Positions 1,286 to 52,761 of a DNA stretch of 64,000 nucleotides are shown piece by piece. The notes under the pieces were generated by a model, which saw only the letters and a program-made list of their open reading frames with translations, searched no databases and had not been told where the DNA came from. Both the position numbers and the translations under genes were made by a program. The stretch comes from Candidatus Nomurabacteria bacterium (lineage in GTDB: Bacteria > Patescibacteriota > Minisyncoccia > Phycocordibacterales > UBA918), in NCBI GenBank assembly GCA_020632135.1, contig JACKGC010000001.1, forward strand, positions 180,241 through 244,240, given 5' to 3'. The number at the start of each line of letters is the position of its first letter. Position 1 is the stretch's first letter.

Positions 1286-1897
1286 ATGAAACGCTTGCGG
1301 CTTTATATAGCACTCACTCTGGCGCTCGGCGTTGCTGGCTGGCTCTTCTGGCCCGAACCAGCCCCGCTCCTACCTACCACGGGTAGCACTATCGTGATAT
1401 TTGGCGACAGTTTAGCAGCCGGGGTCGGGGCGGCCGAGGGTGGCGATATCGCCTCCCGGCTCACCACCGCCCTCGGCCGCCCCATCTTGAACCTCGGAGT
1501 CCCCGGCGATACCACCGCTGATGGTCTCGCCCGAATTGAAGAACTCCTCGCCGCTGACCCGCAGGTTGTAATACTCCTTCTCGGCGGCAACGACGCTCTC
1601 AAGCAAGTCCCGGTCGAAGACATTTTCGCAAATCTTACGCGCATCATCACGCGCATCCAGGCAGTTGGCGCGGCAGTAATACTCGTGGGAGAACCAGGCG
1701 GCCTCTACGGCAACCGTTTCGAAAAGGAATACGAACGTCTCGCACGAACATATCGCACCTTCTATGTACCCAACATCCTCTCCGGACTCATTGGCCGCGC
1801 TGAATACATGAGCGATTACATTCACCCCAACGACGCCGGCTACCAAAAGGCCACCGAGCGCATTTTACCGGTGGTACAAGACGCGCTCGGTGTCTAA
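1286..1897 (+). CDS. SGNH/GDSL-family hydrolase with N-terminal signal/anchor
   Basis: Conserved blocks FGDSLAAG, LLLGGNDAL and IHPNDAGY. Hydrophobic N-terminus. Confidence 0.8.
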   Translation: MKRLRLYIALTLALGVAGWLFWPEPAPLLPTTGSTIVIFGDSLAAGVGAAEGGDIASRLTTALGRPILNLGVPGDTTADGLARIEELLAADPQVVILLLGGNDALKQVPVEDIFANLTRIITRIQAVGAAVILVGEPGGLYGNRFEKEYERLARTYRTFYVPNILSGLIGRAEYMSDYIHPNDAGYQKATERILPVVQDALGV

Positions 1898-2503
1898 TTA
1901 AGACTTCTTAGTGATCCGTAACCAAAAGTAAAGCGTGGTAGCAACCATGGCACCAAGCGTGTCCGCCAACATATCTTTCTGCGCATCCCAGATGTCTCCC
2001 TGGCTACCAAGATACGCAGCCCCCGCCTCCGGTGCAGCGCCTGCGGCGTAGATCCACTCAATGAGTTCGTACCCCATCGCGACCGTTGCGATCGCAAAGA
2101 TCGGGTACGTGTACAGCAAAAAACGATCAGTGACCAACCGCTTCACAGACAACCACTCAGCGATCGCAAACGCGTACAACCCGACACTAAAGTGTGCGAT
2201 CCGATCGAAGTGGTTGCGTTCAAACCCAAAGAAGTCAGTGACGTACTCAAACGGCACTTGTGCGAAGGTCCAGTGTCCACCGATCGTGTGCAGGTATATG
2301 AGCACAAACATGAGTACGTACGCTGTGCTAGAAAAGCGTACGCCTCTGGCATACAAGCCAACTATGGCAAGAACAATGATCCAGACCGTCAAATTTTCCA
2401 CAAACCACGTTGGTCGATCGACCGGATCAAAGGCGAGTACTGTAAATAGAACAATGTAGCCTGCCAGTAGCCACTGCAAGCAAGTATTTTGGATCAATCT
2501 CAT
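1898..2503 (-). CDS. DUF2238/YjdF-like polytopic membrane protein
   Basis: 201-aa ORF with about 6 hydrophobic helices. HTIGGHWTF and NHFDRIAHF segments resemble the YjdF family (from memory). Confidence 0.55.
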   Translation of the reverse strand: MRLIQNTCLQWLLAGYIVLFTVLAFDPVDRPTWFVENLTVWIIVLAIVGLYARGVRFSSTAYVLMFVLIYLHTIGGHWTFAQVPFEYVTDFFGFERNHFDRIAHFSVGLYAFAIAEWLSVKRLVTDRFLLYTYPIFAIATVAMGYELIEWIYAAGAAPEAGAAYLGSQGDIWDAQKDMLADTLGAMVATTLYFWLRITKKS

Positions 2504-2523
2504 ATGAAAAATTATACAGCACT

Positions 2524-2550
2524 AAAAAAGCGCGACCCGAAGGGTCGCGC
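2524..2550 (-). terminator. intrinsic terminator (GCGCGACCC-GAA-GGGTCGCGC, U-tract on minus strand)
   Basis: 9-bp GC stem. The A6 run on the plus strand gives a U6 tail on the minus strand, downstream of the regulator gene. Confidence 0.7.
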
Positions 2551-2599
2551 GCAACTCGCTACACAGCAGCCACACAAAGAACAACAGGATCAACGGCCA

Positions 2600-3289
2600 T
2601 CACACTTCCTGCATCGACTCATCGGTTGCAAGCATGTACCCAAAATCGCGACTGTACCTGATCAATCGCTTCCCTACCACCGGATCGATCTTTTTCAGGC
2701 GGCTACGAATGCGACACATATACGTCCGCATCACCCCCTCCGGATCAACACTGCTTGCATTAAAGAAGTGTCTGACACTGGCCTTTGACACCGACTTACC
2801 TTGATATTCGGCAAGCTTGGCCAAAATGGAAAACTCTTTAGGGGTGAACGACACTTTCTTTTGATACATTCTCGCCTCACGGCGTCTAAGATCAACTTCG
2901 AGCGGACCGGCGTATATGATACGCTGCAGCATTGCCTCACGGTGACGCGTTCGAGCTAAAAAGACCGCCGCGATCTCTTGCGGGTCAAGGCGGTCGGAGA
3001 CCGCGTCATCAAACCCATCTTCGATCCGAGCGATGCGACCAAAGTGAAAACTATGAGCAGGCACCACGGCGATCAACTGATGTTCCAACGCCACTTCACG
3101 AGCTCGCAAGACGAACTCCGTGTTCGCATACGGAAACAAGACCGCTCCCAACTGATGCTTGCCATATCGCGCATCGTCGTGGAGCATCTTGATCGCCGCT
3201 CGTTCGCCAAGACAGTGCATGATCGGTACACCATGCGTTCGAAGCAGTTGCCCAATTTCTTGAGACATATCAACTAAAAGTAATTTCAC
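2600..3289 (-). CDS. OmpR/PhoB-type winged-helix regulator with degenerate (pseudo) receiver domain
   Basis: GTG at 3289 lies 6 nt after GGGAGA. The C-terminus has an OmpR-like wHTH (FTPKEFSILAKLAEYQGKSVSK...RTYMCRIRSRLKK). The receiver-like N-terminus lacks the phospho-acceptor Asp. The longer 277-aa ORF would overlap the neighbouring gene. Confidence 0.7.
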   Translation of the reverse strand: MKLLLVDMSQEIGQLLRTHGVPIMHCLGERAAIKMLHDDARYGKHQLGAVLFPYANTEFVLRAREVALEHQLIAVVPAHSFHFGRIARIEDGFDDAVSDRLDPQEIAAVFLARTRHREAMLQRIIYAGPLEVDLRRREARMYQKKVSFTPKEFSILAKLAEYQGKSVSKASVRHFFNASSVDPEGVMRTYMCRIRSRLKKIDPVVGKRLIRYSRDFGYMLATDESMQEV

Positions 3290-3393
3290 GTGCGTCTCCC
3301 GTTTCTGCACAGAACAAACCGCCGCAATGCTACATAACAAGAGGCGGTGAGTCAACTGGTAGGCGGCGCGGAGCCCGAAGGGCTCCCCGCCGC

Positions 3394-3912
3394 CTACCGA
3401 CGCAATACGAATCGCAGCTCCTTCTCTGCCCACTCCTTCGCATATGCCACGCCAATGCGTGGCGTGCTCTCAATTTGCTCTGACGAAACCATCGTCTCCC
3501 CCTCTTCGACCCAGAGTCCGACTTTCTTCCCAACCGACTGACCATTGAGCGTGCGCGTAATACCAAGCGCCTTAGTGAGCTTGCCCGGCCCATTCCACTT
3601 CCCCACGCCGCGAATGAGTACGGCCGCCGGGTACCCAGCCTCACCGGTCACAATATTCAACATGTCGTACATGCCATACACCAAGTACATATAGATCGTA
3701 CCCGGCCGCCCAAACATAACTTCAGTGCGCGCTGTCCGCCCCTTACTAGCGTGACTTGCCAAGTCGTGTGGACCAACGTACGCTTCTGTTTCAGTGATGA
3801 TGTGTCGCTCAATTTTCTCCCCCACTCGTACACAGAGTACGCAGCCTAAAAGCTCCCGTGCCACCACCTCAGCTGGTCGGTCAAAAAATGGGTTCTGGAG
3901 CATGCGCGTCAT
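3394..3912 (-). CDS. mpg: DNA-3-methyladenine glycosylase (Mpg/AAG family)
   Basis: ARELLGC, ITETEAYVGPHDLASHA and GTIYMYLVYGMYDMLNIV motifs are typical of the family. Confidence 0.85.
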   Translation of the reverse strand: MTRMLQNPFFDRPAEVVARELLGCVLCVRVGEKIERHIITETEAYVGPHDLASHASKGRTARTEVMFGRPGTIYMYLVYGMYDMLNIVTGEAGYPAAVLIRGVGKWNGPGKLTKALGITRTLNGQSVGKKVGLWVEEGETMVSSEQIESTPRIGVAYAKEWAEKELRFVLRR

Positions 3913-3935
3913 GACCGTATCATAGCGAAAATGAA

Positions 3936-3955
3936 GCGGCCCCTAAAGGGGCCGC
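3936..3955 (-). terminator. GC hairpin GCGGCCCC-TAAA-GGGGCCGC after the nuclease gene
   Basis: 8-bp GC stem followed by a U-rich stretch on the minus strand. Confidence 0.55.
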
Positions 3956-3993
3956 TCCAACAATTCATCTAACATGCTCATATCAAACCGGCA

Positions 3994-5187
3994 CTAAGAG
4001 GGATCAACAATATCCACCTGCGTCCGATATTCTTTAAGCGCCACCTTATCTGCCACCTGACTGAGCGCAGCCTTGAGCGTCTTATCAGCTTTTCCTACTA
4101 CGATCATTCCTCGTACTTTTTTCCCGTCTGGCTCTGCGAGTTTTTCACTGACCCAGCCCATGTAGTTGAGCACCTGCCCCACCACCTTATAACCAGACTC
4201 TGCTCGCTTGAGCTCTATCACCACAAAATCATCGTCCTTATCAATGGCGAGAATATCAATAATTCCTACATCGGTCGTATACTGCTGCCCTTCTGAACCA
4301 CCCTCATCTATGTAGATCCGAAGCTCTTCACCAAAATTAATTCGATCCCAGTTTTTAATAATGTATTCCTCCAAGTGGTTTTCGTACGCAAAGAAACCCG
4401 TGTTCGTTTCCATGCCTTCACCTACTACATCCTCCTCATCAGTCCGAGCTGGTACCGCCTCAGCTGCTTCTGCTGCGCGTTTAGCGTACACGCGGGCGCC
4501 AACATAGATCACATTTTGTGTCATCCAGCGCGAAGCAGCATCATCGAAGGAAAGGTGTTGCGTTAAACGTTTCTTCAGCGCCTGCACTGCTTCATTCCCA
4601 TCAATATGCTCACGTAGTGCTTCGATGTACGGCTGATACACTTCATACTGCTCGCCAGCAGTCAGACGTATCGGCATCTTGAATGAGTCATCAATATACT
4701 TCGCGAACACGCGCCATTCACTTGGCTTTAGTGGATTGTACTTTTCTGGGTATCGAAGTCCTAGTAACAGGCTTAAAAACCGGAGATTGACGTAACTATG
4801 TGCCTCTTCACCAAGCGTCTTATTACGCATCGCCATCAGATCATCAAAAGCGCTTTCTGCTTCTGCCAACCGATCTTGCACTAACAATGATTCATCAAAC
4901 AACCGCTGCAAAATAGTTCGCACTTCAGCTTGATGCTCTTCGGCAAAAATAAGAAGCATCTTCTTCGGGAAATACATACTTCCTGCCACTAAATTAGTAT
5001 TCAAAATGGCCTCATCAAGCATATTCACCAAGTCATCCGCCTCAAGGTCAAAATGCTTTTGAAAATGTTCCACCGCCTCAAACTTATACCCTTCTTCATC
5101 CTGTACATGATACGCCTCTCCCACCTCAGCAACATGCTTGAGAAATAGCTGCACCCACGATCGAATTTTTTGTTGGTCTATTTGCAT
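3994..5187 (-). CDS. NucS/DUF91-like PD-(D/E)xK nuclease domain fused to a long helical N-terminal domain
   Basis: C-terminal IDILAIDKDDDFVVIELKR...VVGQVLNYMGW matches the D...ExK NucS-type core. The N-terminal roughly 270 aa resemble the helical lead domains seen on McrB-like restriction proteins (from memory). Confidence 0.6.
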   Translation of the reverse strand: MQIDQQKIRSWVQLFLKHVAEVGEAYHVQDEEGYKFEAVEHFQKHFDLEADDLVNMLDEAILNTNLVAGSMYFPKKMLLIFAEEHQAEVRTILQRLFDESLLVQDRLAEAESAFDDLMAMRNKTLGEEAHSYVNLRFLSLLLGLRYPEKYNPLKPSEWRVFAKYIDDSFKMPIRLTAGEQYEVYQPYIEALREHIDGNEAVQALKKRLTQHLSFDDAASRWMTQNVIYVGARVYAKRAAEAAEAVPARTDEEDVVGEGMETNTGFFAYENHLEEYIIKNWDRINFGEELRIYIDEGGSEGQQYTTDVGIIDILAIDKDDDFVVIELKRAESGYKVVGQVLNYMGWVSEKLAEPDGKKVRGMIVVGKADKTLKAALSQVADKVALKEYRTQVDIVDPS

Positions 5188-5594
5188 AACTCACTTATAT
5201 CAGATTTACGATGTTAACAAACTAGACTAGGTGTGGTTTTTCATGTACCGATCAATTCTTTCTTCTCTTCAGTACTTTTGTTTCCTGCAAAATATACCTC
5301 GATACACAGCACCTCCACTGCTGTGCCATCAAACCCACACACCACTCGAGACAGTGCACCTTTTGCCGCTCGGCACATCATGCGCGAGCGTGTAGCACAC
5401 ACGCACGCACATACCGCACGACTTTCAACCTGGCAATTTTTAGAATTTTATGTCCCTGTTCCAACTTCTCGGAAGCACGTTCGCCATGAATATCTTGTAT
5501 TGATCGTGACACGGCACGCCACACACCTTGAAACCATCCTGTTTCGTAGTAGTGTATGGCCAGAACAGTTGATCCACACAAAGGAGTGCTCTAC

Positions 5595-5936
5595 GTGACC
5601 ACCTATCGCTACTTTCTCGAACCGATCGGCCCCGAAGCCAATGAGGCACTGGCCGACCTCCTCAACCAAATGGGCGAATCTGCCTCGTCGTGTGAACGAC
5701 GAAACGTCATGACCCAAAGGGGATTGGTCGAATTCATGTACGAAGTACCGCGGCACGCGACGGTGACCATCGCTGGCCACTCGGTACACAAAGGACACTT
5801 CCGAGCCTATGTGCAAGAAGGTGCTGGCAAGATCCGTCAGCACTCCTTGTACAAGAACATCGGCAAGCGAGTGTCTCGAGCAAAGGGGGTGCAAAGGGTT
5901 AAACGAGAGCTCAAAGAAAAAGCCAAACGGCGCTAG
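5595..5936 (+). CDS. hypothetical basic protein
   Basis: GTG at 5595 lies 8 nt after AAGGAG, and the terminator at 5966-5995 follows. A longer form starting at ATG 5556 is possible. Confidence 0.45.
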   Translation: MTTYRYFLEPIGPEANEALADLLNQMGESASSCERRNVMTQRGLVEFMYEVPRHATVTIAGHSVHKGHFRAYVQEGAGKIRQHSLYKNIGKRVSRAKGVQRVKRELKEKAKRR

Positions 5937-23500: not shown

Positions 23501-24106
23501 CTACTCCCCCTTCCCATCGAGGTTCACGTCGTACATGATGCGCTCTTGAGCGGTGATATACTGCATGATCTCGGCGTCGCTAAACCAGATCTTGATCTCG
23601 CGTTCAGCTTCTTCTGGAGATTCTGATTGGTGCACCAGGTTGCGCACCGCGCGATCTTCGTACGTAGCGTGAGAGAATGAATCGAGCGTGTAATCACCAC
23701 GAATAGTTCCCACATCTGAGGTGGCTGGCTCTGTGGTACCCACGATCTTGGTCACCACTGCCGTTGCCTGATTACCTTCAAACACAAGCGCTACGATCGG
23801 GCTGGCCTGCATGTACTTCACCACGGTGCGGATGATGTCCTTGCCGTACTCGATCGGTTCCTTTTCGACTTCTCGCCCTTGCGCTTTCAAGTCTTCAACG
23901 ATTCCCTTACCCTTCTTTTCATACCAAGCATCATCCTTGTTGTAGTGATCAAGGAGCTGTGCTTCAGTCGCGTTCAACATCTTCATGGCGCTGATCTTTA
24001 GGCCCGTCTGCTCAAAGCGCTTGATAATTTCACCGACGAGACTACGCTGTACCGCGTCGGTCTTGAGGAGCACTAATGATCGTTCTTGATTTGGTCGTTT
24101 TGACAT
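23501..24106 (-). CDS. ndk: nucleoside diphosphate kinase (long form)
   Basis: ERSLVLLKTDAVQRSLVGEIIKRFE...VALVFEG...TIRGDY...NLVHQSES is an NDK core with insertions. Confidence 0.8.
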   Translation of the reverse strand: MSKRPNQERSLVLLKTDAVQRSLVGEIIKRFEQTGLKISAMKMLNATEAQLLDHYNKDDAWYEKKGKGIVEDLKAQGREVEKEPIEYGKDIIRTVVKYMQASPIVALVFEGNQATAVVTKIVGTTEPATSDVGTIRGDYTLDSFSHATYEDRAVRNLVHQSESPEEAEREIKIWFSDAEIMQYITAQERIMYDVNLDGKGE

Positions 24107-24272
24107 AATTGCGACTTATTTTTATGGCCGCAGTATAGCAAAAAGAACTAAAAAACCAAATGGTACACATAAAAGAACCCCGCTTGGAAAGCGGGGTAAA
24201 GGTTCCACCAAAGGGATTCATCTGCTTGGCTCGCAATACCAAGCGAGACTCACGCAATGTATATCTTTATCA

Positions 24273-42568: not shown

Positions 42569-44083
42569 CTACAACTCCGCCATCGCCTCATCAATGAGAT
42601 CTTCGATCTCTTCGACGAGATCCAATACCTCATCCCAATCTTCGTCTTCAAAAGCATCTTCCGCGTCATTCAAGAGGTCATCTGCCTCATCCAAAATACC
42701 TTCCGCTTTCTTGGTACTCTTACCCGCGTCGTCGGCATCATACACTTCGTCCCAGGCCTCATCAAGCGCTTTGTCGATATCCTCAAGCGCTTCGTCTGCC
42801 TCGTCTTCATCTTCATCAGAAGAACCCCCGATCGCGTCGATCGCTTCGTCGATCAAGTCCTCTGCCTCTTCTGCCTGGTCGATCGCTTCCTCATAATCTT
42901 CTTCGTCGATAGCGATGTCAGCCCGCTTCAGGGCTCGCTCCGCGTCATCTAGCAGATCTTGGGCGTCCTCGACATCCTCGCCGTCCTCATCAGCTTCGTC
43001 GATCTCCTCCTCAGCTGCATCAAAGTCATCCCACACATCTTCAACGTACTTTTCTGCGTCTTTGTCTGAAATAAAGTCGATCTCATCGAGCGCGTCTTCA
43101 AGCAACTCTTCCGCATCGAGCGCGTCGCTCTTGGCTTGACGGTACACTCGCTCCTCAAATGCGTCCTTTGCATCATCAAGGAGATCTTCTGCCTCCCCGA
43201 TCAGCTCTTCGGCGTCACCAGTATCTTCGTCCTTGTCTTCAGCCTCATCAAAGAGATCCTGTACTTCCTCGAGCAGATCATCAACATCATCAATAATGTC
43301 TTCTGCTTCACTTGCCTCAGATTCACCGCCAGCGTCCTCGTACGCATCTGTCGCATCATCCAGAGCGGTCACTGCTGTTTCCTCAGCTTCAGCGAAGTCT
43401 CCATCGAAATAGCTCTCCAGAGCCTCAAACAGAGACTCAATGACATCACGAACATCTTCATCGATGTCCAACGCCTCATCTGGGTCATCGTCACGTAGGT
43501 CGTCAAGCTCATCATACGTGTTGAGAATAAGGTCCATTGCATCGCTAATGAGTTGCTCCGCGTCCGTTTGCGTCTTGCTCTTGGCCGAGGTTGAGATGCC
43601 CGCCACTTGCGGCGCTGGTGTCGTGACCGTAGCCGGAAGCGTTGGCTGTGGCGTGGCAGCATTGAGCTGTGACTGTAGATCATCAACTAAGCTGAGAAGT
43701 CGCTCAGCTTCAGTCTGTGCCACTGCAGAACCCGCTCCGACCACTTCCTGATACTTCGCCTGCGAAACTGAACCAAAGATACCGATGGCCGGAGAAACAT
43801 CATGATCTGCTTGCCACTTGGCTACGGCTTCACGAGTGAGTGAACCGTATTTGTCGGTCTCATTACCGGGTGACCCTGGCCCTTCGGCGGTGAGCTCGTA
43901 GCCATTAGCATTAAGGTACTCCTGCAGACAGCGCACGCTCTCGTCGATCACACCAACCTCAAGCGTTTGCGAAAACGTACAAGTGTTGGCCTGCGCATAA
44001 AATACAAATGGTGCGCTAAAAAGTAACGCAACGGCTAGACAAATAAATGAGACACGCGATCGAATGGAAACGGACAGGTTCAT
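42569..44083 (-). CDS. secreted peptidoglycan-binding-domain protein with roughly 320-aa hyper-acidic repeat region
   Basis: Signal peptide. PG_binding_1-like segment (VRCLQEYLNANGY...LTREAVAKWQADHDV). Then Asp/Glu-dominated repeats such as AEDLLDDAKDAFEE and AQDLLDDAERAL. Confidence 0.8.
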   Translation of the reverse strand: MNLSVSIRSRVSFICLAVALLFSAPFVFYAQANTCTFSQTLEVGVIDESVRCLQEYLNANGYELTAEGPGSPGNETDKYGSLTREAVAKWQADHDVSPAIGIFGSVSQAKYQEVVGAGSAVAQTEAERLLSLVDDLQSQLNAATPQPTLPATVTTPAPQVAGISTSAKSKTQTDAEQLISDAMDLILNTYDELDDLRDDDPDEALDIDEDVRDVIESLFEALESYFDGDFAEAEETAVTALDDATDAYEDAGGESEASEAEDIIDDVDDLLEEVQDLFDEAEDKDEDTGDAEELIGEAEDLLDDAKDAFEERVYRQAKSDALDAEELLEDALDEIDFISDKDAEKYVEDVWDDFDAAEEEIDEADEDGEDVEDAQDLLDDAERALKRADIAIDEEDYEEAIDQAEEAEDLIDEAIDAIGGSSDEDEDEADEALEDIDKALDEAWDEVYDADDAGKSTKKAEGILDEADDLLNDAEDAFEDEDWDEVLDLVEEIEDLIDEAMAEL

Positions 44084-44153
44084 ATCAATACTAAATATTA
44101 TGAGTAGTTGCTTTCATTGTATCAGATTTCTTCCCATTGCTACCGCACAGACA

Positions 44154-44342
44154 TCACTGCTCGCAGAGCAGCTGGTAGGGATGGGACTTACCAATATGGT
44201 GCTGAGCAACAGCAGTCGCAGCAACGGAACTCACGCACTGATAACGGCCAGCTTCGTGGGCCAGCACACCATTAGCAACCTTCATTACTCCGATCACGAG
44301 GACAAAACCAATAATCAAAAAAACATTGCGAGCTGATCTCAT
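44154..44342 (-). CDS. possible 62-aa small membrane protein
   Basis: MRSARNVFLIIGFVLVIGVMKV... has one TM helix. No SD. Weak call. Confidence 0.25.
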   Translation of the reverse strand: MRSARNVFLIIGFVLVIGVMKVANGVLAHEAGRYQCVSSVAATAVAQHHIGKSHPYQLLCEQ

Positions 44343-44488
44343 TGAGATAGAACATGACTTACGTGGGACCGCTTGTTTGTAAGAGTGGGAGTAATAGCCT
44401 ACCAAGCAGACACGAAAACTGTAATGGCAGTGACGTTGATAACCAGCTCGTCTGAGCACTTTCACCATGAAGCAGCGATACGTCAAAC

Positions 44489-44525
44489 AAGATCGGCCGG
44501 GCCCCGAAAGGGCCCGGCCGATCTT
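44489..44525. terminator. hairpin AAGATCGGCCGGGCCC-CGAAA-GGGCCCGGCCGATCTT after rplB
   Basis: 16-bp stem of the GGCCGGGCCC family. Confidence 0.65.
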
Positions 44526-44546
44526 ACTTTTACGACACCAACACCA

Positions 44547-45839: not shown

Positions 45840-46520
45840 CTACTTTGACTTAGCAGCTGGTGCGATGCGTCCAGCCAAAACTTCAACTGAAGCTGTCGCG
45901 TCTGCCACCACTACGTACTTATAAGTGAGGAGGTCAACCGGGTTGACGTCCTTTGCCTGAATAACTTCGATGTTACCGAAGTTGCGGAAGCTCTTCTCAG
46001 TAGCGAGATCGCGTTCTGCGAGCACGACTACGGCAGCGTTCTTGCGCTTTTTGGCCATTGCTTCATTACCTGAACCATTCGCAATTGCAGTAAAGACTGC
46101 CTTTGCATCCTTGGTCTTTGGTGCATCCAGCTTGAGGGAATCAACGAAGATCACTTCTGCATCTGCCAACTTCTTGGTCAGCACAGACGCGAGCGCCTTG
46201 GCCTTTACCTTCTTGTTGATCTTGACTGAGTAATCCTTTTCGCTGCGTGGTCCGAAAGTCACACCACCACCAGTCCAGATCGGAGACCGACGTGAACCGT
46301 GACGAGCGCGACCAGTACCCTTCTGACGCCATGGCTTCTTACCACCACCGCGTACTTCAGAGCGATCCTTAGTATGTGCGTTGCCTTCGCGAGCATTTGC
46401 CTGCATACCGACCACCACTTCGTGGACAAGGTCTGCGTTCCAAGCAACTCCGAACACCGACTCTGGAAGGGTTACCTTGCCAGTTTCTTTTCCGTCTTTA
46501 GAAAATACTTTTGCATCCAT
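45840..46520 (-). CDS. rplD: 50S ribosomal protein L4
   Basis: GGGKKPWRQKGTGRARHGSRRSPIWTGGGVTFGP is uL4. Confidence 0.97.
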   Translation of the reverse strand: MDAKVFSKDGKETGKVTLPESVFGVAWNADLVHEVVVGMQANAREGNAHTKDRSEVRGGGKKPWRQKGTGRARHGSRRSPIWTGGGVTFGPRSEKDYSVKINKKVKAKALASVLTKKLADAEVIFVDSLKLDAPKTKDAKAVFTAIANGSGNEAMAKKRKNAAVVVLAERDLATEKSFRNFGNIEVIQAKDVNPVDLLTYKYVVVADATASVEVLAGRIAPAAKSK

Positions 46521-46534
46521 ATTCTATTTGTTAC

Positions 46535-47152
46535 TTAGGCCCCGTAGACCTCTACTAATGTTCCCTTTCGACCTGGTACTGCACCTGATACTACGAGAGT
46601 ATTTTCAGCAGCATTTACTTGAAGGACCTTAAGTCCCTTTACAGTGACGGTGTCGCCACCCATGCGTCCGGCCATGCGAGTACCCTTAAGTACGCGATTG
46701 TTACCGGTCGCACCGATTGAACCTGGCTCACGCTCAGAATGCTTCTGACCGTGCGAGCGCCGTCCACCGGCAAAGCCATGGCGCTTCACCACACCCTGGA
46801 ATCCCTTACCTTTTGAAATAGCGGAGACCGTGATGTCATCACCTGGCTCAAACACAGACACGTCGATAGTGGCACCCTTTTCTACGTCGCCAATAGTCTC
46901 TCCCTTGAATTCACTTGGGCGAAACTCGCGCGCGGCAGCAGCGGTCCCAAAATGACCCTTCTGTGCTTTGCTGACACGATGCTCTTTCTGCTCACCAAAC
47001 GCGAGCTGCACCGCTGCGTAGCCGTCCTTTTCTGCGGTCTTCACCTGAGCGATAGTCGCTGGTGTGACCGTGAGCACGGTAGCTGCGCGACACACTCCTT
47101 CGGTATCGAAGACCTGTGTCATGCCAGTCTTAGTTCCTACGATAAATTTCAT
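46535..47152 (-). CDS. rplC: 50S ribosomal protein L3
   Basis: GTKTGMTQVF...KGKGFQGVVKRHGF...SHGQKHSEREPGSIG is uL3. Confidence 0.97.
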   Translation of the reverse strand: MKFIVGTKTGMTQVFDTEGVCRAATVLTVTPATIAQVKTAEKDGYAAVQLAFGEQKEHRVSKAQKGHFGTAAAAREFRPSEFKGETIGDVEKGATIDVSVFEPGDDITVSAISKGKGFQGVVKRHGFAGGRRSHGQKHSEREPGSIGATGNNRVLKGTRMAGRMGGDTVTVKGLKVLQVNAAENTLVVSGAVPGRKGTLVEVYGA

Positions 47153-47210
47153 TATTTATGTATGAATCTTGTAAATCGCTTTTATCATCAAATGATGTAG
47201 ACCCATACAA

Positions 47211-47267
47211 CAAATCGCGCGGATTTTCCGCGAGCACAGCTCGTCGTCAGAAAATCCGCGCGATTTG
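47211..47267. repeat. perfect 18-bp-arm hairpin just upstream of rplC
   Basis: CAAATCGCGCGGATTTTC-(21 nt with inner CGAGC/GCTCG stem)-GAAAATCCGCGCGATTTG. Confidence 0.85.
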
Positions 47268-47508
47268 TGCCCATTGGTCCGGGGCGCTCGCTTCGCTCGC
47301 GCCACGTACGTAGGTCTTTAAAAGCTGGGGGTAGTATACGCATACTGATGAAAAATGCAACTAGTACAGCTCTCCGACGTCAGATCTCCTTTGCGGAGAA
47401 GAAATTGGATCTGACGAAGATCCAAGATGAATTCGAAATAGTCGGCTTCGCTTATTTACATAAAAAAGCCGAGCGAAGCTCGACTTTTATTAACTGATAA
47501 CGTTTGAT

Positions 47509-47631
47509 CTATCCGATCACGGGAGCGATATGGAAGTACGCAAGTACTGCAATCGTCGCCAGACTGAGGCACTGGACCATCCAGCTATCTTCAGACTGAA
47601 ACGTCATCTCCTTCTTTTCTAAGTTTTCCAT
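47509..47631 (-). CDS. possible 40-codon ORF with C-terminal TM helix
   Basis: MENLEKKEMTFQSEDSWMVQCLSLATIAVLAYFHIAPVIG. Too short for the ORF track and has no good SD. Lies directly 3' of the structured domain on the minus strand. Confidence 0.25.
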   Translation of the reverse strand: MENLEKKEMTFQSEDSWMVQCLSLATIAVLAYFHIAPVIG

Positions 47632-47667
47632 ATAATTTGGAGTTAAAACTTATCCTCTAAAGAACTG

Positions 47668-47971
47668 TAGAAGTTGTCTAAGCTCTCACCATAGATACTA
47701 CGTTGTACATAATGACTCTGGTGTTTACTTTGTTTAATCTCACCGAGTATAGAATTTACGATGAGAATTTAGACAACTTCTATCGGAAGCCATCTGAGTT
47801 CTCAACACAAGCATGTTGTTACTAACTCTTGTTTCGGGTCGTCGTGACCAATGATCTGGCTGCAAAACTGCGCTTCGTTATCGCTGAACGAAAGTTCAAC
47901 TCAAACTTCAGCTTGTTTTTCGCTCAGATCATTGGTCACTTCGGACCTCGATGAGAACTCAGATGACTTCC
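47668..47971 (-). other. two adjacent nested-hairpin domains (candidate structured RNA or MITE-like element)
   Basis: Helix 47668-47681 / 47769-47782 is 14 bp and perfect. Helix 47785-47804 / 47952-47971 is 20 bp with one mismatch, which becomes a G-U pair only on the minus strand. Nested helix 47844-47858 / 47925-47939 is 15 bp and perfect. Flanked by the 10-bp direct repeat CTAAAGAACT (47657-47666 and 47971-47980). Confidence 0.45.
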
Positions 47972-48021
47972 TAAAGAACTATTTCTAATGCCTGCTGTAT
48001 TCCCGAGGGAGTGGAGCGGGC

Positions 48022-48088
48022 ACAGGAGGCGAATCGCGTCGACGATAACGACGAGAAAGGCGAATCGCTTGCGCGATTCGCCTCCTGT
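48022..48088 (-). promoter_or_regulatory. three-copy GGCGAATCGC element able to form mutually exclusive hairpins
   Basis: Copy A 48022-38, copy B 48059-68, inverted copy C 48072-88. B/C forms a 10-bp stem with a GCAA loop plus UUUCUCGUCGUU on the minus strand. A/C forms a 17-bp stem. Confidence 0.4.
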
Positions 48089-48155
48089 TGATTACAGTAT
48101 GAACCTTCGCGAAAAGAGTGCAAGTAGCATCTGTGGATAACTTGAGTGGTGTCAA

Positions 48156-48183
48156 TTTGAAATCATTTTAGCGGTGGTATACT
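48156..48183 (+). promoter_or_regulatory. promoter TTTGAA-N16-(TGg)TATACT for the 48-codon gene
   Basis: Extended -10 and a plausible -35. Confidence 0.5.
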
Positions 48184-48221
48184 GCTCGCGGAAATCAATT
48201 GCCAACACTGGAGGACAAAAA

Positions 48222-48368
48222 ATGATGATCAAGCAAGTCATTATCATCTACAGCCTGTTTGGATTTGAAATGTGTTACAACCCCTGCCCTTGGCAACAGA
48301 TTGGTATTTGTAAGACCCACCACAGATCGAGGTATGGACCACACTTTACTCGATCAGTGAGGAGGTAA
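48222..48368 (+). CDS. 48-aa hydrophobic/basic Cys-containing peptide (type I toxin-like)
   Basis: GGAGG lies 7 nt before the ATG. MMIKQVIIIYSLFGFEMCYNPCPWQQIGICKTHHRSRYGPHFTRSVRR. Own promoter and terminator. Confidence 0.5.
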   Translation: MMIKQVIIIYSLFGFEMCYNPCPWQQIGICKTHHRSRYGPHFTRSVRR

Positions 48369-48376
48369 CAATCAAG

Positions 48377-48405
48377 AAAGCCGGCCCCAAAGGGGTCGGC
48401 TTTTC
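48377..48405 (+). terminator. terminator GAAAGCCGGCCCC-AAA-GGGGTCGGCTTTTC
   Basis: The stem contains a G-U pair only when read on the plus strand. T-run follows. Confidence 0.7.
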
Positions 48406-48497
48406 CTAGGCTACTATCGATATTCAGACGTCATGGGTTTGCGTAGCACTGTTTTAAACATACAACCACGACTTCCATCAGAGACCAGGTGGTCAGC

Positions 48498-48534
48498 CTC
48501 CAAAAAACGCCCTATGAATGGGCGTTTTTTGGAG
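48498..48534. terminator. bidirectional terminator CTCCAAAAAACGCCC-(7 nt)-GGGCGTTTTTTGGAG after rpsJ
   Basis: 15-bp perfect stem that includes A6/T6. Confidence 0.8.
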
Positions 48535-48570
48535 AACTCAAAATATGGTCGTTACACTCCCTATTTTGAG

Positions 48571-48909
48571 CTACATCATCTTCACATCAATGTTCACACC
48601 TGACGGCAGTGAGAGGTTCGTGAGAGCTTCCACTACCTTTGGACCCGGATTGAGGATGTCGATCACACGCTTGTGCGTTCGCATCTCGAATTGTTCTCGC
48701 GCGTCCTTGTGTACGAACGTTGAGCGGTTAACCGTGTACTTCTTGATCTCCGTTGGCAATGGGATCGGACCAACCACCTTGGCGTCGAAACGCATGGCAG
48801 TGTCGATGATCTGCTTGACCGAAGTATCGAGGATCTTGTGTTCGTAGGCACGCACTCGAATACGGAGTTTGTTGATCGCACCGGCAGTTTTTTCGGTTGT
48901 TTCAGCCAT
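48571..48909 (-). CDS. rpsJ: 30S ribosomal protein S10
   Basis: LRIRVRAYEHKILD...GPIPLPTEIKKYTVNRSTFVHKDAREQFEMRTHKR is uS10. Confidence 0.97.
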   Translation of the reverse strand: MAETTEKTAGAINKLRIRVRAYEHKILDTSVKQIIDTAMRFDAKVVGPIPLPTEIKKYTVNRSTFVHKDAREQFEMRTHKRVIDILNPGPKVVEALTNLSLPSGVNIDVKMM

Positions 48910-49083
48910 GGTAATACGTTAGATGTTTCTACTCACACTACCTTACTCTCAATTGCAAGCGATTGCTTGAAATTGCTCGAGATACGAGGAAGGGCAAGGC
49001 TTGGGAGGAAGCCGTACTTGGCGGTACGGTGACCGACCAAGCCGACGCCCTGACAAAGTAGATTGAGTAATTTCATCAATCGC

Positions 49084-50271
49084 TTAGGCGATGATTTTGG
49101 TTACTACGCCTGCACCTACTGTCTTACCACCCTCACGGATAGCAAAGTTCTGTTGCTCCTCAAGCGCTACTGGAGTTACCAGCTTCACTTTGAAGGTTGC
49201 AGTGTCTCCTGGCATAACCATCTCAGTACCTTCTGCGAGGGTTACATCACCAGTTACGTCAGTAGTACGTACGTAGAACTGTGGCTTGTAACCTGAGAAG
49301 AATGGTGTGTGACGACCACCCTCATCCTTTGAAAGGACGTATACTTCAGCCTCGAACTCAGCGTGCGGGGTTACAGAACCCTTCGCTGCGAGCACCTGAC
49401 CACGGTGTACATCTTCCTTTTTGGTACCGCGCAGGAGGATACCAGCATTGTCGCCTGCCTGAGCAGCATCAAGCTGCTTATTGAACATTTCAACTCCGGT
49501 CACTGTTGTGACTGAAGTATCCTTGATGCCAACGATCTCTACTTCTTCACCGACCTTTACCTTACCGCGCTCTACACGACCAGTTACTACTGTGCCGCGT
49601 CCTTCAATTGAGAAAATGTCCTCAATTGGCATCAGGAATGGCTTGTCGAGTTCACGTTCAGGGGTTGGGAAGTACTCATCCATCTTATCCATCAGTTCAA
49701 CGATCTTTGCCTGGTAGTCTGCGTCGCCTTCGAGCGCCTTAAGTGCAGAACCATGAATGATCGGTGCATTTTCACCATCGTATCCAGCCTTGGTAAGATC
49801 TTCGCGAAGCTCTTCCTCCACGAGCATGAGCATTTCTTCATCATCTACCATGTCACACTTGTTAAGGAACACAAGCATCTTTGGTACACCTACCTGCTTT
49901 GCAAGAAGGATGTGCTCCTTTGTTTGTGGCATAGCACCATCAGTAGCTGCCACTACGAGGATAGCACCGTCCATCTGTGCCGCACCGGTGATCATGTTCT
50001 TGATGTAGTCAGCGTGACCTGGCGCATCAATGTGGGCGTAGTGACGATTTGGAGTCTCGTACTCAGAGTGAGAAAGAGAAATAGTAATACCACGAGCCTT
50101 TTCTTCTGGGGCTTTGTCAATTTCGCTAACATCCTTTACGTTAGCTGCATACCCATCACCTTTTGCATTGAGGGTAGTAAGAATAGCAGCAGTCAAGGTG
50201 GTTTTACCGTGGTCGACGTGACCAATGGTACCGACGTTGATGTGCGGCTTTGAACGATCAAAATCTGCCAT
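49084..50271 (-). CDS. tuf: elongation factor Tu
   Basis: [21 protein letters not shown] and NKCD motifs. 395 aa. Confidence 0.98.
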
Positions 50272-50332
50272 ATTAGTAGATTAGATTAGTTTTAATTAAA
50301 TAAGGTTCACCGCACACACTTGCGTACGTTAG

Positions 50333-50490
50333 AAAAAGCCTGTGCCACTTTCGTGGCGACAGGCTCTTTCGCGCGCTTGATTCTCCGTGTGCAAGCGAAA
50401 CGGCGCGAGAACGCCGCGCTTCACTTGTACGCGAATGCGTGTGAAAGAGCACTGTATATCCCCCCTTCCACAGACGAATCTGTGAGCGGT
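50333..50490 (-). ncRNA. structured RNA of about 155 nt (leader/attenuator or sRNA) between fusA and tuf
   Basis: On the minus strand: CACAGA-UUCG-UCUGUG, an 8-bp GCUCUUUC/GAAAGAGC helix, and inner helices. Ends in GCCUGUcGCCAC-GAAA-GUGGCACAGGC followed by U5, 62 nt before the tuf ATG. Confidence 0.45.
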
Positions 50491-50496
50491 GCGAGA

Positions 50497-50524
50497 ATAG
50501 TACCAAAGACGGGATATTTTGCAA
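50497..50524 (-). promoter_or_regulatory. promoter TTGCAA-N16-TACTAT (minus strand)
   Basis: Good -35 and -10 immediately after the fusA terminator. Confidence 0.5.
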
Positions 50525-50565
50525 GGAAAACGGCCGGCCCCGAAGGGGCCGGCCGTTTTCCTTGC
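50521..50565 (-). terminator. fusA terminator GCAAGGAAAACGGCCGGCCCC-GAA-GGGGCCGGCCGTTTTCCTTGC
   Basis: 21-bp stem. Confidence 0.85.
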
Positions 50566-50583
50566 TGTGTAAGATCTTACAGA

Positions 50584-52761
50584 TTACTCAGCCACGCCAC
50601 GCGCTTTCTTGATCTCCATCGCTACGTTTGGTGGTACCACCTCGTAGTGATCGAATTCCATAGTCATGGATGCGCGACCCTGGGTCATTGAGCGGAGGGT
50701 GTTGGTGTACCCAAACATCTCAGCCAATGGGATCTTTGCGTTTACGATGGTCTTACCGCCCAGTTCTGAGGTACCTTCAAGCTGTCCGCGCTTTGAAGAA
50801 ATGTTTCCTTGAATATCACCCATGTATTCTTCTGGCGTACGGACCTCAACCTTCATGATCGGTTCCAGGATCACCGCACCAGCCTTGGCTGCTGCTTCCT
50901 TAAACGCATTGATACCAGCGAGTTTGAAGGCGATCTCAGACGAGTCGACATCGTGGTAACTACCATCGAACAGCTCAACGGACACATCCTCCATCTTGTA
51001 CCCAGCAACGAAACCGCGTCCCATTGCTTCCTTCGCTCCCTTCATCACGGCTGGGATGTACTCACCAGGCACAACACCACCCTTGATGTTATTAATGAAT
51101 TCAAAGTGCTCATCACGAGTGATATTCTTAGCCACCTTTACTGGCTCGCCCGTTTCCGGGTCGATCGCAAGTGGCGGAAGCGGCTTAATGCGGATCTTCA
51201 CGTGACCGTACTGACCACGTCCACCAGACTGCTTGATGTACTTGTATTCAGCTTCGGCTTCACGCTGGATCGTTTCGCGGTACGCCACCTGTGGAGCGCC
51301 GATGTTGGCCTCCACGCCGAACTCACGCTTCATACGATCAACGATAATATCGAGGTGAAGCTCACCCATACCAGCGATGATCGTCTCGAGTGTTTCTTCG
51401 TCAGTTGACACCTTAAAGGTTGGATCTTCGTCAGCGAGACGCTTCAGTGCCACACCCATCTTCTCCTGGTCGTTCTTGGTCTTTGGTTCGACACGTACTG
51501 CCACCACTGGCTCTGGGAAAGTAATGGTCTCAAGCTCGATCTGTGCATTTTCGTCACAGAGTGTGTCTGAAGTCTTTACTTCCTTAAGACCTACTACTGC
51601 AGCAATTTCTCCTGCGTACACTTCTTCAATTTCTGCTCGCTTGTCAGCTTGGAGTCGTACAATACGACCGACACGTTCTTTGTTGCCTTGTGAGGAGTTG
51701 TAGATGTAGGTACCAGCCTTCACCTTTCCTGAGTACACCCGGAAGAAAGCCAGCTGCCCCACGAACTTGTCGTCCTGTAGCTTGAATACGAGCGCTGAAA
51801 ATGGCTCATCGTCAGATGGCTTTCGGGTGAGCACAGTCTCTTCATCTTTCGGGTCAACACCTTCCACTGGTGGCAAGTCGAGCGGTGATGGGAGGTAATC
51901 TACCACCGCGTCGAGCACGAGCTGCACGCCGATATTCTTAAGGGCTGTACCAGTCATCACTGGGAAGATCTCGTTGGCGATCACTGCCTTGCGCAGGGTC
52001 TTTTTGAGATCATCGACTGATGGTTCTTCACCACCAAGATATGCTTCCATGAGCACATCGTCATGAGCCACCACCTGTTCGATCAGCTCAGCGCGCCACT
52101 TTTGCGCTTCCTCAAGCATGTCAGCTGGGATCTCCTCTTCGGTCACGGTCATGCCCATTTCACCACCAAAGCGGTATGCCTTCATGGTGATGAGGTCAAC
52201 GACACCACTCATAGTATCTTCAGCACCGATCGGGAGCTGGATACGCACTGCCTTGGTTGAAAGGCGGTCATGAATTGACTTCACTGATGCGTCAAAGTCA
52301 GCACCGAGCTTGTCCATCTTATTTATGAAACAAATACGTGGCACATTGGCCTCGTCAGCATACCCCCAGTTGGTTTCGGTCTGTGGTTCAACACCTGCTG
52401 AACCGTCGAATACCACAACCGCACCGTCGAGCACACGCATTGACCGCTTTACCTCAGCGGTAAAGTCGATGTGACCTGGCGTGTCGATGATGTTAAAGGT
52501 GTGTTTCAGCTCCTTGGTGGTTCGGTCAGCCTCCATTGTCTTGGTCCAGTTACAAGAGATCGCTGCAGCGGTAATAGTGATACCGCGTTCGCGCTCTTGC
52601 TCCATCCAGTCAGTGACTGTTGCGCCATCGTGCACCTCACCGATCTTGTGAGACATACCGGTGTAAAAGAGGATACGTTCAGACGTGGTGGTCTTACCGG
52701 CGTCTACGTGCGCTACGATACCGAAGTTTCGTAGTTTCTCGAGTGGAAATTCTCGTGCCAT
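50584..52761 (-). CDS. fusA: elongation factor G
   Basis: [20 protein letters not shown] and NKMD motifs. 725 aa. Confidence 0.98.

Follow-up and report, generated by a model that had tools for sequence, protein, structure and literature searches.

A probable split of the S10 operon between rpsJ and rplC in a Paceibacteria clade, with a conserved small membrane-protein gene and a structured rplC leader

The interval between rpsJ and rplC

Few known gene orders are as stable as that of the S10 cluster, and the locus described here raises the question of what lies between two of its genes once they have come apart. In a 64-kb stretch of contig JACKGC010000001.1 from a Candidatus Nomurabacteria bacterium (the whole stretch is called the window, and positions are counted from its first letter), the minus strand carries fusA (50584-52761), tuf (49084-50271), rpsJ, rplC, rplD, rplW and rplB in this order. 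The genes for ribosomal proteins S10 (rpsJ, 48571-48909, a 112-aa open reading frame, or ORF) and L3 (rplC, 46535-47152, a 205-aa ORF), both on the minus strand, form the upstream and downstream edges of a 1418-bp gap (47153-48570). An earlier note on this DNA had described the two genes as about 1.4 kb apart with no ORF of at least 80 codons between them, and we found the same: the ORF list of the window holds none of that length in the gap, where the longest ORFs, both on the plus strand, encode 76 aa (47267-47497) and 64 aa (48174-48368). We propose that in a clade of Paceibacteria (Patescibacteria, or candidate phyla radiation, CPR) the S10 operon is probably cut at the rpsJ/rplC junction into separate transcription units, and that the gap consists of their control regions and one small gene.

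The gap is no assembly artefact, since an independent assembly from Logan run SRR14234116 (L001) contains an identical 1418-bp gap; the identical rpsJ and rplC genes match Pfam Ribosomal_S10 (on the L001 gene) and Ribosomal_L3. By rplC, the closest genomes are Paceibacteria/Nomurabacteria metagenome-assembled genomes (MAGs; L003 at 85%, L004 at 81%); Kaiserbacteria and further Patescibacteria come next. Among relatives, rpsJ is 88-98% identical. Across 80 genome loci the spacing between rpsJ and rplC is usually 5-100 bp, and it is wide in the nearest relatives (3560 bp in L003, 4077 bp in L004, 1075 bp in L006 and 1035 bp in L007). Two blocks of the gap are similar to these relatives. One (47552-48089) is 79% identical to L003 over 547 nt and overlaps a stretch (~47513-47691) that is 68% identical to L004; the other (47200-47361) lies directly upstream of rplC and is common to L003, L004 and L006. 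The gap is not peculiar to this genome: the small-gene unit and the rplC leader that occupy these blocks are conserved in position across the clade.

Two checks that the earlier note had proposed gave nothing. No Rfam family reached the gathering threshold in the whole window, and at E up to 10 the best matches in 46000-50000 had E-values >1 and all belonged to unrelated eukaryotic families. Self-BLAST against the 64-kb window found no extra copy of the gap, and only generic terminator hairpins were alike. The window contains no tRNA or tmRNA genes, and a literature search turned up no CPR bacteria for which an rplC leader or a gene separating rpsJ from rplC had been described.

The chain of strong structures that the earlier note saw in the gap is there: long inverted repeats are dense (33, 27, 25, 19 and 17 nt), and the minus strand of 47632-48100 folds at -196 kcal/mol as compared to -116 for shuffled sequences (z = -14.1; z = -11.2 for the plus strand). 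The rplC-proximal 177 nt have z = -7.05. When the folds of 30 loci were summed, the sense strand gave -1803 kcal/mol and 195 G-U pairs, as compared to -1666 kcal/mol and 110 G-U pairs for the antisense strand, and several G-U pairs are invariant inside covarying helices. These counts demonstrate the strand bias and support the view, already favoured in the earlier note, that the structures are read on the minus strand, in the sense of the operon. One of that note's examples held in part: the GCAA loop at 48069-48072 (minus sense) is present in the window but is not kept as a GNRA loop in relatives.

A small membrane-protein gene and its control region

The small gene (sORF) lies at 47509-47631 on the minus strand and encodes a 40-aa protein, MENLEKKEMTFQSEDSWMVQCLSLATIAVLAYFHIAPVIG (homologues P0001-P0014), with a polar N-terminus and one predicted transmembrane helix; the hydrophobic stretch runs from W17 to P37 and carries an invariant W, Q, C and S. 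Homologues came from L003 and L004, from a protein database (five more) and from a metagenome scan with peptide alignment (31 loci). In approximately 30 related metagenomic and MAG loci (L003, L004, L083-L118), the sORF is always between rpsJ and rplC and on the same strand, and the order tuf-rpsJ-sORF-rplC is demonstrated in all loci with flanks. Among 25 distinct coding sequences, 15, 9 and 27 of 28 columns vary at the first, second and third codon positions, pairwise differences number 1817, 829 and 4230, and pN/pS is 0.20 with a pS of 0.76. This coding signature, with variation dominated by third positions and a low pN/pS, demonstrates that the sORF is protein-coding and under purifying selection. 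Thus, of the two tiny genes on opposite strands that the earlier note had suggested, the one on the minus strand is a real conserved gene; the other, on the plus strand at 48222-48368, has no homologue and its DNA is absent from relatives.

The peptide matches no Pfam family, and a profile search of 1.84 billion representative proteins found only 9 clusters, which indicates that the family is clade-restricted. It is absent from the other 78 genome loci, and no second copy is present in the 64-kb window or in 118 loci. Its AUG is not preceded by a Shine-Dalgarno sequence. The anti-Shine-Dalgarno motif has been detected in only 48% of Parcubacteria (PMC9297842), a figure compatible with Shine-Dalgarno-free initiation in this group. 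Downstream of the gene, a hairpin resembling an intrinsic terminator (AGUCGAGC UUCG CUCGGCUUUUUUAU) is found at 47460-47485 on the minus strand, and 28 of 29 distinct loci have a terminator-like hairpin with a T-run no more than 130 nt past the sORF stop. A further minus-strand hairpin between this terminator and the rplC promoter (47372-47422, with a terminator-like site at 47425-47405) is not conserved in relatives. With its predicted start and end of transcription, the sORF would be a monocistronic unit.

Upstream of the sORF, we observed the same series of elements in all ~25 distinct loci: a strong terminator, one or two copies of a 9-mer, a -35 element, a -10 element and a stem-loop (H1). 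In the window, the predicted sigma-70-type promoter of the unit occupies 48096-48123 on the minus strand, with -35 TTGCAC at 48118-48123 and -10 CATACT at 48096-48101. An alignment of 29 loci (A3) shows at least 90% conservation for the TTG of the -35 element and no variation at A2 and T6 of the -10 element, the two positions of the hexamer that should be fixed in a promoter of the sigma-70 type. Across the clade, the predicted promoter reads TTGCnn, 16-17 nt, (C/G)ATAAT, and H1 follows ~8 nt on.

Just upstream of the promoter, at 48132-48140 on the minus strand, is the 9-mer TTATCCACA, which we take to be the DnaA-box consensus of E. coli and B. subtilis (the TTATNCACA pattern). It is the sole exact copy in the 64-kb window. 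Relatives have one or two matching 9-mers before the -35 element; a 9-mer with at most one mismatch is found in 30 of 30 loci, only on the sense strand, at -52 to -56 or -61 to -66 from H1 (two registers offset by 10 nt), as compared to a background of 6 in 2533 windows (0.24%). From these positions and matches, we infer that the sORF promoter may be controlled by DnaA. We rejected a replication origin at this box, as the GC skew is uniformly negative across the window and the exact box is single.

H1 (48022-48088, minus strand; inverted repeats I5 and I15) would form the 5'-terminal stem-loop of the sORF transcript. Its inner hairpin (48059-48082) is kept in all relatives, and its outer 17-bp helix (48022-48088) is limited to the window, L003 and L094, where a second, downstream copy of the H1 3' arm forms the outer helix and changes along with the 5' arm. 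A covariance model of H1 (R2) matches once in each sORF locus and in no other locus. In the alignment fitted to this model, the inner helix is 94% paired, 7 of its 11 pairs have changed on both sides, and covariation is 0.422 as compared to 0.220 in shuffles, none of 500 reaching the observed value. One G-U pair is kept by 19 of the 26 sequences. The 5' arm contains a GGAGG, which pairs with CCUUU.

A small hydrophobic peptide behind a folded leader could also be the toxin of a type I toxin-antitoxin system, in which the 5' untranslated region (UTR) would silence the mRNA of a membrane toxin and an antisense RNA would control it; the earlier note had listed a toxin-antitoxin locus among its explanations. 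The peptide is small (40 aa, where fewer than 60 aa are expected) with a single transmembrane helix, the long 5' UTR is extremely stable (z = -14), the AUG has no Shine-Dalgarno sequence, the GGAGG is sequestered in H1, and the plus strand folds well too (z = -11). However, the gene is not patchy, multi-copy or mobile; it is kept in strict single-copy synteny across a clade whose rplC proteins are only 69-85% identical, with strong purifying selection against a background of saturated synonymous change, and neither the window nor the 118 loci hold a second copy. On the opposite strand, we saw neither a conserved sequence nor a promoter, be it inside the gene or downstream of it: similarity to L003 stops at the ORF, and in similarity searches against relatives the only conserved sequence flanking the sORF is its sense 5' UTR. 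Many relatives, moreover, have a 5' UTR of only ~120 nt. The synteny, the selection and the lack of a conserved antisense gene disfavour a toxin-antitoxin locus, which we consider unlikely, and we retain the reading of the sORF as a small membrane-protein gene of the clade.

Between H1 and the start codon, every locus contains exactly two copies of GTTCTTT, the first preceded by TTAGAAAT. In the window, H1 is followed on the minus strand by a small hairpin, H2 (47990-48021; minimum-free-energy fold, two compensatory pairs as compared to L003), and then by the first repeat, UUAGAAAUAGUUCUUU (47973-47988, with GTTCTTT at 47973-47979; direct repeat D6). The second repeat, GUUCUUU in the RNA, is at 47659-47665 on the same strand, 27 nt upstream of the sORF start codon; it precedes the ATG by 5-27 nt in all loci but L118, whose start annotation is in doubt. 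The spacing of the two repeats is 1-7 nt in most loci, 22-32 nt in L088, L090 and L107, 66-81 nt in L004, L084, L106 and L114, 105 nt in L116, 161 nt in L094 and 303-307 nt, the largest, in L003 and the window. Every insert folds as one or two hairpins that close at the repeats.

The window has two such hairpins, both on the minus strand. H4 (47669-47781; inverted repeat I1) has homologues in L003, L094, L116, L106, L004/L087 and L084/L085. Over seven lineages, its basal stem is 96.2% paired, 9 of 23 pairs have changed on both sides, and U-G pairs are conserved; covariation is 0.406 as compared to 0.246, and 0 of 500 shuffles reach it. When the window was compared to L003, we found 11 double compensatory changes, and all 9 one-sided changes are compatible with G-U pairing in the operon sense. 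H3 (47785-47971; inverted repeats I2 and I3) is found in the window and L003 only, with compensatory changes between the two, and its base resembles that of H4 (direct repeat D2), as a duplicate would. The apex of H3 (~47829-47940), which we call element X, has a homologue at L100 6320-6445, in the rplW-rplB spacer, and 13 of 43 pairs are compensatory among the three sequences. Its presence at a second site in L100 indicates that the module has moved or been copied at least once. The L100 copy of element X, which has no Rfam match, forms a hairpin of ~100 nt whose internal loops and tail (CACGRCRRCCCGAAACAA) are conserved; a scan of viral contigs with the conserved tail gave four chance matches and no homologous hairpin. 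We rejected an opposite-strand ORF over H3/H4 as a protein-coding alternative (82 codons in L003, 1650-1898, minus strand): in the window a stop splits it into 40 and 41 codons, it has no Pfam match, and the region evolves by paired compensation.

Could the hairpins, together with a segment of the gap unique to this genome (48150-48497), be decayed and functionless mobile DNA, as nested insertions resembling miniature inverted-repeat transposable elements (MITEs) in a permissive intergenic site? Relatives have anything from 1 to 307 nt of hairpin content between the repeats, the base of H4 seems to be duplicated in H3, the H3 apex has a homologue elsewhere, and the junction gathers cargo in relatives. 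Against this, the hairpins are not multi-copy as MITEs would be: the 64-kb window holds no other copy, and among the 118 loci the only one outside the orthologous site is that in L100. No transposase is present, and the viral contigs gave chance matches only. The GTTCTTT repeats are present in tandem, 1-7 nt apart, in loci without an insert and so are not target-site duplications. The compensatory changes in the stems and the G-U pairs conserved on one strand indicate selection on the RNA fold, not decay. We therefore regard functionless mobile DNA as quite improbable, and of the earlier note's suggestion to this effect, at most the unique segment and the H3 apex stand.

For the hairpins, we prefer a reading in terms of the sORF mRNA. 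Two UGUUCUUU repeats would end the 5' UTR directly before the AUG, and the site between them would be an expansion site, where inserts fold back so that the repeats stay adjacent in the RNA; it would be this fold-back that makes the stems evolve by compensatory change. As inserts of 20-300 nt part the repeats in the DNA and the hairpins keep them adjacent in the RNA, we infer that the repeats act at the RNA level, near the Shine-Dalgarno-free AUG, and that the hairpins are tolerated expansions that need to stay folded.

The promoter and leader of rplC

A second predicted sigma-70-type promoter lies ahead of rplC at 47333-47360 on the minus strand, with -35 TTGCAT at 47355-47360 and -10 TATACT at 47333-47338. 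In alignment A4, all loci that reach this far upstream have TATACT, with CTTGCA 16-17 nt before it. This conserved promoter would drive rplC-rplD-rplW-rplB through a structured 5' UTR of ~175 nt (47153-47326, minus strand), the rplC leader. Its helices, all on the minus strand, are P0 (47316-47326 pairing with 47177-47184), P1 (47280-47306), P2 (47200-47279, tip 47231-47243) and P3 (47183-47199); a 19-bp hairpin reported in the earlier note (47210-47268) is recovered as the upper part of P2. The conserved stretch of ~150-190 nt reads AGCUUUAAAGACCUAUGUAC - P1 - GGACCAAUGGGCACAAAUCGCGC...GAGCUUGUGCUC...GCGCGAUUUGUUGUAUGGGUC - P3 - UAAAGC...UUCAUACA..AUG.

A covariance model of the leader with 37 pairs (R1) gave sense matches of 88-165 bits in 27 sources (26 distinct loci and the window) as compared to 22-48 bits for antisense matches. 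The matches include L005 and L006, both of which lack the sORF, and there is no significant match in more distant Patescibacteria or in the rest of the window. In 25 of 26 loci, the match ends at the rplC start codon; in L083, it ends 170 nt upstream. There, an AT-rich palindromic insert (L083 6653-6973) separates the leader from rplC, which would uncouple the 3' end of the leader from the start site. In the alignment fitted to the model, 96.4% of cells are paired and 18 of 37 pairs have changed on both sides; covariation is 0.314 as compared to 0.132, with 0 of 500 shuffles reaching it and slid controls at or below 0.047. Covariation supports P0, P1, upper P2 and the P2 tip. Together with H1 and H4, the leader thus bears out the covariation check that the earlier note had proposed, and covariation in these structures is demonstrated.

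At the base of P2, four GACC/GGUC pairs and the G-U pairs beside them are the same in all sequences. For the invariant UGUAUGGGUC, three pairing partners come into question: GGACCAAUGGGCACA, the 5' AGACCUAUGUAC, which is preferred by the single-sequence fold, and the UUCAUACA segment, which is complementary to it in most loci and lies 3-9 nt before the AUG. The UGUAUGGGUC/UUCAUACA duplex has a mean of -7.6 kcal/mol as compared to -4.5 kcal/mol for shuffles, and -11.0 kcal/mol in the window. The two segments show matching changes in L114 and L100 and a misfit in L109, L006 and L083. These alternatives give the leader the layout of a possible switch. It would act by competition for UGUAUGGGUC, between pairing inside the leader and pairing with the start-adjacent UUCAUACA, and would be the autoregulatory binding site for an early encoded protein, by analogy L4, or L3. 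The leader shows two of the features by which ribosomal-protein leaders (r-leaders) are recognized, a sense-strand 5' UTR position before a ribosomal-protein operon and a covarying structure, and we consider it a new candidate, with L4 or L3 suggested as the ligand by genomic context.

Several points weigh against parts of this picture. All sequences compared are metagenome assemblies. The promoters, transcription starts and terminators are predictions, and a generic promoter scan at its threshold missed both promoters, that of the sORF and that of rplC. A different factor, not DnaA, might bind the 9-mer. As a candidate general translation signal, GTTCTTT has only a mild enrichment in the 64-kb window to show, with 17 copies as compared to 9.7 expected, and its contexts are mixed. 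At one of these places (24142-24178, minus strand), a GTTCTTT pair 30 nt apart flanks a promoter-like TGCTATACT upstream of the ORF at 23501-24106; this pair (24142/24172) around a promoter means that a DNA-level role could exist. For H1 and the leader, the counts come from alignments that had been fitted to the model structures and are biased in favour of the latter. Because the P2 base is invariant, covariation is silent among the three partners of UGUAUGGGUC. Local alignment of the leader to 23S rRNA, that of E. coli and not the clade's own, scored 21-23 as compared to shuffle means of 20-21, so rRNA mimicry is unsupported.

The remaining explanation, that the gap is one large independent structured non-coding RNA of ~0.5-1.4 kb, as the earlier note had suggested, is extremely improbable: folding is very strong over 470 nt and conservation is 85% as compared to L003 over 650 nt, but terminators and promoters part the conserved pieces, the big hairpins are missing from most relatives that keep everything else, the protein-coding sORF sits in the middle, no Rfam family matches at any threshold, and what we find instead is two separate structured 5' UTRs (of the sORF and of rplC), terminators and the unique segment.

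The junction in relatives and known systems

On the rpsJ side of the gap, a hairpin stands directly after the rpsJ stop (CUCAAAAU...AUUUUGAG; 48537-48570, minus strand; inverted repeat I17). A similar one is found in the equivalent place in L003, L086 and L105, and BLAST similarity extends to L097 and L117. It is followed by the 15-bp-stem terminator that the earlier note had assigned to rpsJ (48498-48534; inverted repeat I9), which is indeed a perfect repeat, 100% complementary with a 7-nt loop; as its A-run and T-run lie inside the stem, it is terminator-like on both strands. The tuf-rpsJ transcript would end in these two hairpins, the second being the terminator, and in relatives too a strong terminator lies upstream of the sORF unit. 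Next comes the orphan segment of ~350 bp (48150-48497), which has no similarity to related loci except the identical L001 and is possibly the remnant of an insertion. It contains a hairpin (48377-48404) and a plus-strand ORF of 48 codons (48222-48368) with a GGAGG 7 nt upstream. We rejected this ORF as a supported gene, since its DNA is absent from all relatives and its peptide has no homologue among 5.8 billion proteins; it also has no Pfam match.

The rpsJ/rplC junction is an insertion hot spot in relatives. In L004, the sORF and the rplC leader are parted by a complete diversity-generating retroelement (DGR; 1709-4518), whose reverse transcriptase, accessory protein and target protein match Pfam RVT_1, bAvd and Fib_succ_major, respectively, and L003 has three unrelated ORFs at the junction; other ORFs are found in L006 and L011. 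With a terminator after rpsJ and a promoter and leader of its own for rplC, the junction is an ordinary intergenic site, and hence it takes up cargo in relatives. We also noted a template-like repeat of the target C-terminus in the L004 DGR (~3120-3338); two small opposite-strand ORFs in the L011 gap (5311-5894) that by eye resemble a RelE/ParE-type toxin and its antitoxin; and, in one lineage, a 204-aa PEP-CTERM sorting-domain protein (PF07589) between rpsJ and the sORF promoter (L084 5077-5691, L085 195-809).

Other spacers of the operon drew our attention as well. The tuf-rpsJ spacer (48910-49083, 174 nt) forms one long branched hairpin (-69.9 kcal/mol, z = -7.35), and its length ranges from ~25 to ~200 nt across relatives, which suggests that it may be a further site of hairpin expansion. 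The fusA-tuf spacer (50272-50583) is 312 nt long and has no long ORF. After rplB, the operon is interrupted a second time (42569-44546): a PG_binding_1-domain protein (42569-44083, minus strand; 504 aa, extremely acidic) and further genes precede rpsS. A 489-aa ORF occupies the equivalent post-rplB site in L083, so this second split also looks clade-wide.

The clade-wide split of rpsJ from rplC, with a conserved extra gene, shows a rewiring of S10 order in CPR bacteria. The kinds of element found here, a small gene and a leader, are known, and the individual members are new. With the sORF family comes a new small membrane protein whose control region (DnaA-box-like element, 5' hairpin, twin repeats and expansion site) is unusually informative, and comparative support this extensive is rare for small proteins of uncultured bacteria. 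If DnaA does control the sORF, replication status would be linked to a function related to the membrane or the ribosome. We put forward tentatively, as a rather doubtful possibility, that two regulatory inventions of one CPR clade meet at this junction: a DnaA-controlled small membrane protein whose translation would be governed by a twin-UGUUCUUU expandable-hairpin module, and a three-way UGUAUGGGUC leader switch.

Among known systems, the rplC leader is best compared to other r-leaders. A survey of these (PMC7247131) has S10 leaders from E. coli and Firmicutes and, upstream of rplC, only the L4 leader of Archaeoglobi; CPR leaders are not among its entries, and Rfam 15 has none for this group either. 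The rplC leader is well supported as a candidate new r-leader. Like the S10 leaders of E. coli (autoregulated by L4) and Firmicutes, it is a structured 5' UTR with conserved helices that heads the rplC-rplD-rplW-rplB set (PMC7247131). Those leaders, however, lie upstream of rpsJ, whereas here rpsJ is on another predicted transcript and the leader precedes rplC; the leader has no match to the Rfam S10 leader at E up to 10 or at the gathering threshold, and no attenuator terminator is visible in it. The L4 r-leader candidate of Archaeoglobi (Eckert and Weinberg 2020, PMC7247131) likewise lies directly upstream of rplC, rplD, rplW and rplB, but that motif is archaeal, the rplC leader is confined to one Paceibacteria clade, and a comparison via Rfam 15 gave no similarity.

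The sORF shares with type I toxin mRNAs of the hok, tisB and zorO class a small hydrophobic peptide, a long folded 5' UTR and an occluded ribosome-binding signal. In contrast to these, it is a single syntenic copy under purifying selection in a deep clade, no antisense gene was found for it in the loci compared, and it has a DnaA-box-like element. Promoters controlled by DnaA boxes include those of B. subtilis sda and of dnaA. The sORF resembles these in having one or two TTATNCACA-matching 9-mers directly upstream of the -35 element and a small product; it differs in that its product has no sequence relation to Sda, no origin is nearby (the GC skew being uniform) and DnaA binding is predicted only. 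Lastly, H3 and H4 recall, by analogy only, the expansion segments of rRNA, in which hairpins of variable length grow from one fixed point and leave their flanks adjacent; unlike in those segments, the RNA that hosts H3 and H4 is the 5' UTR of an mRNA.

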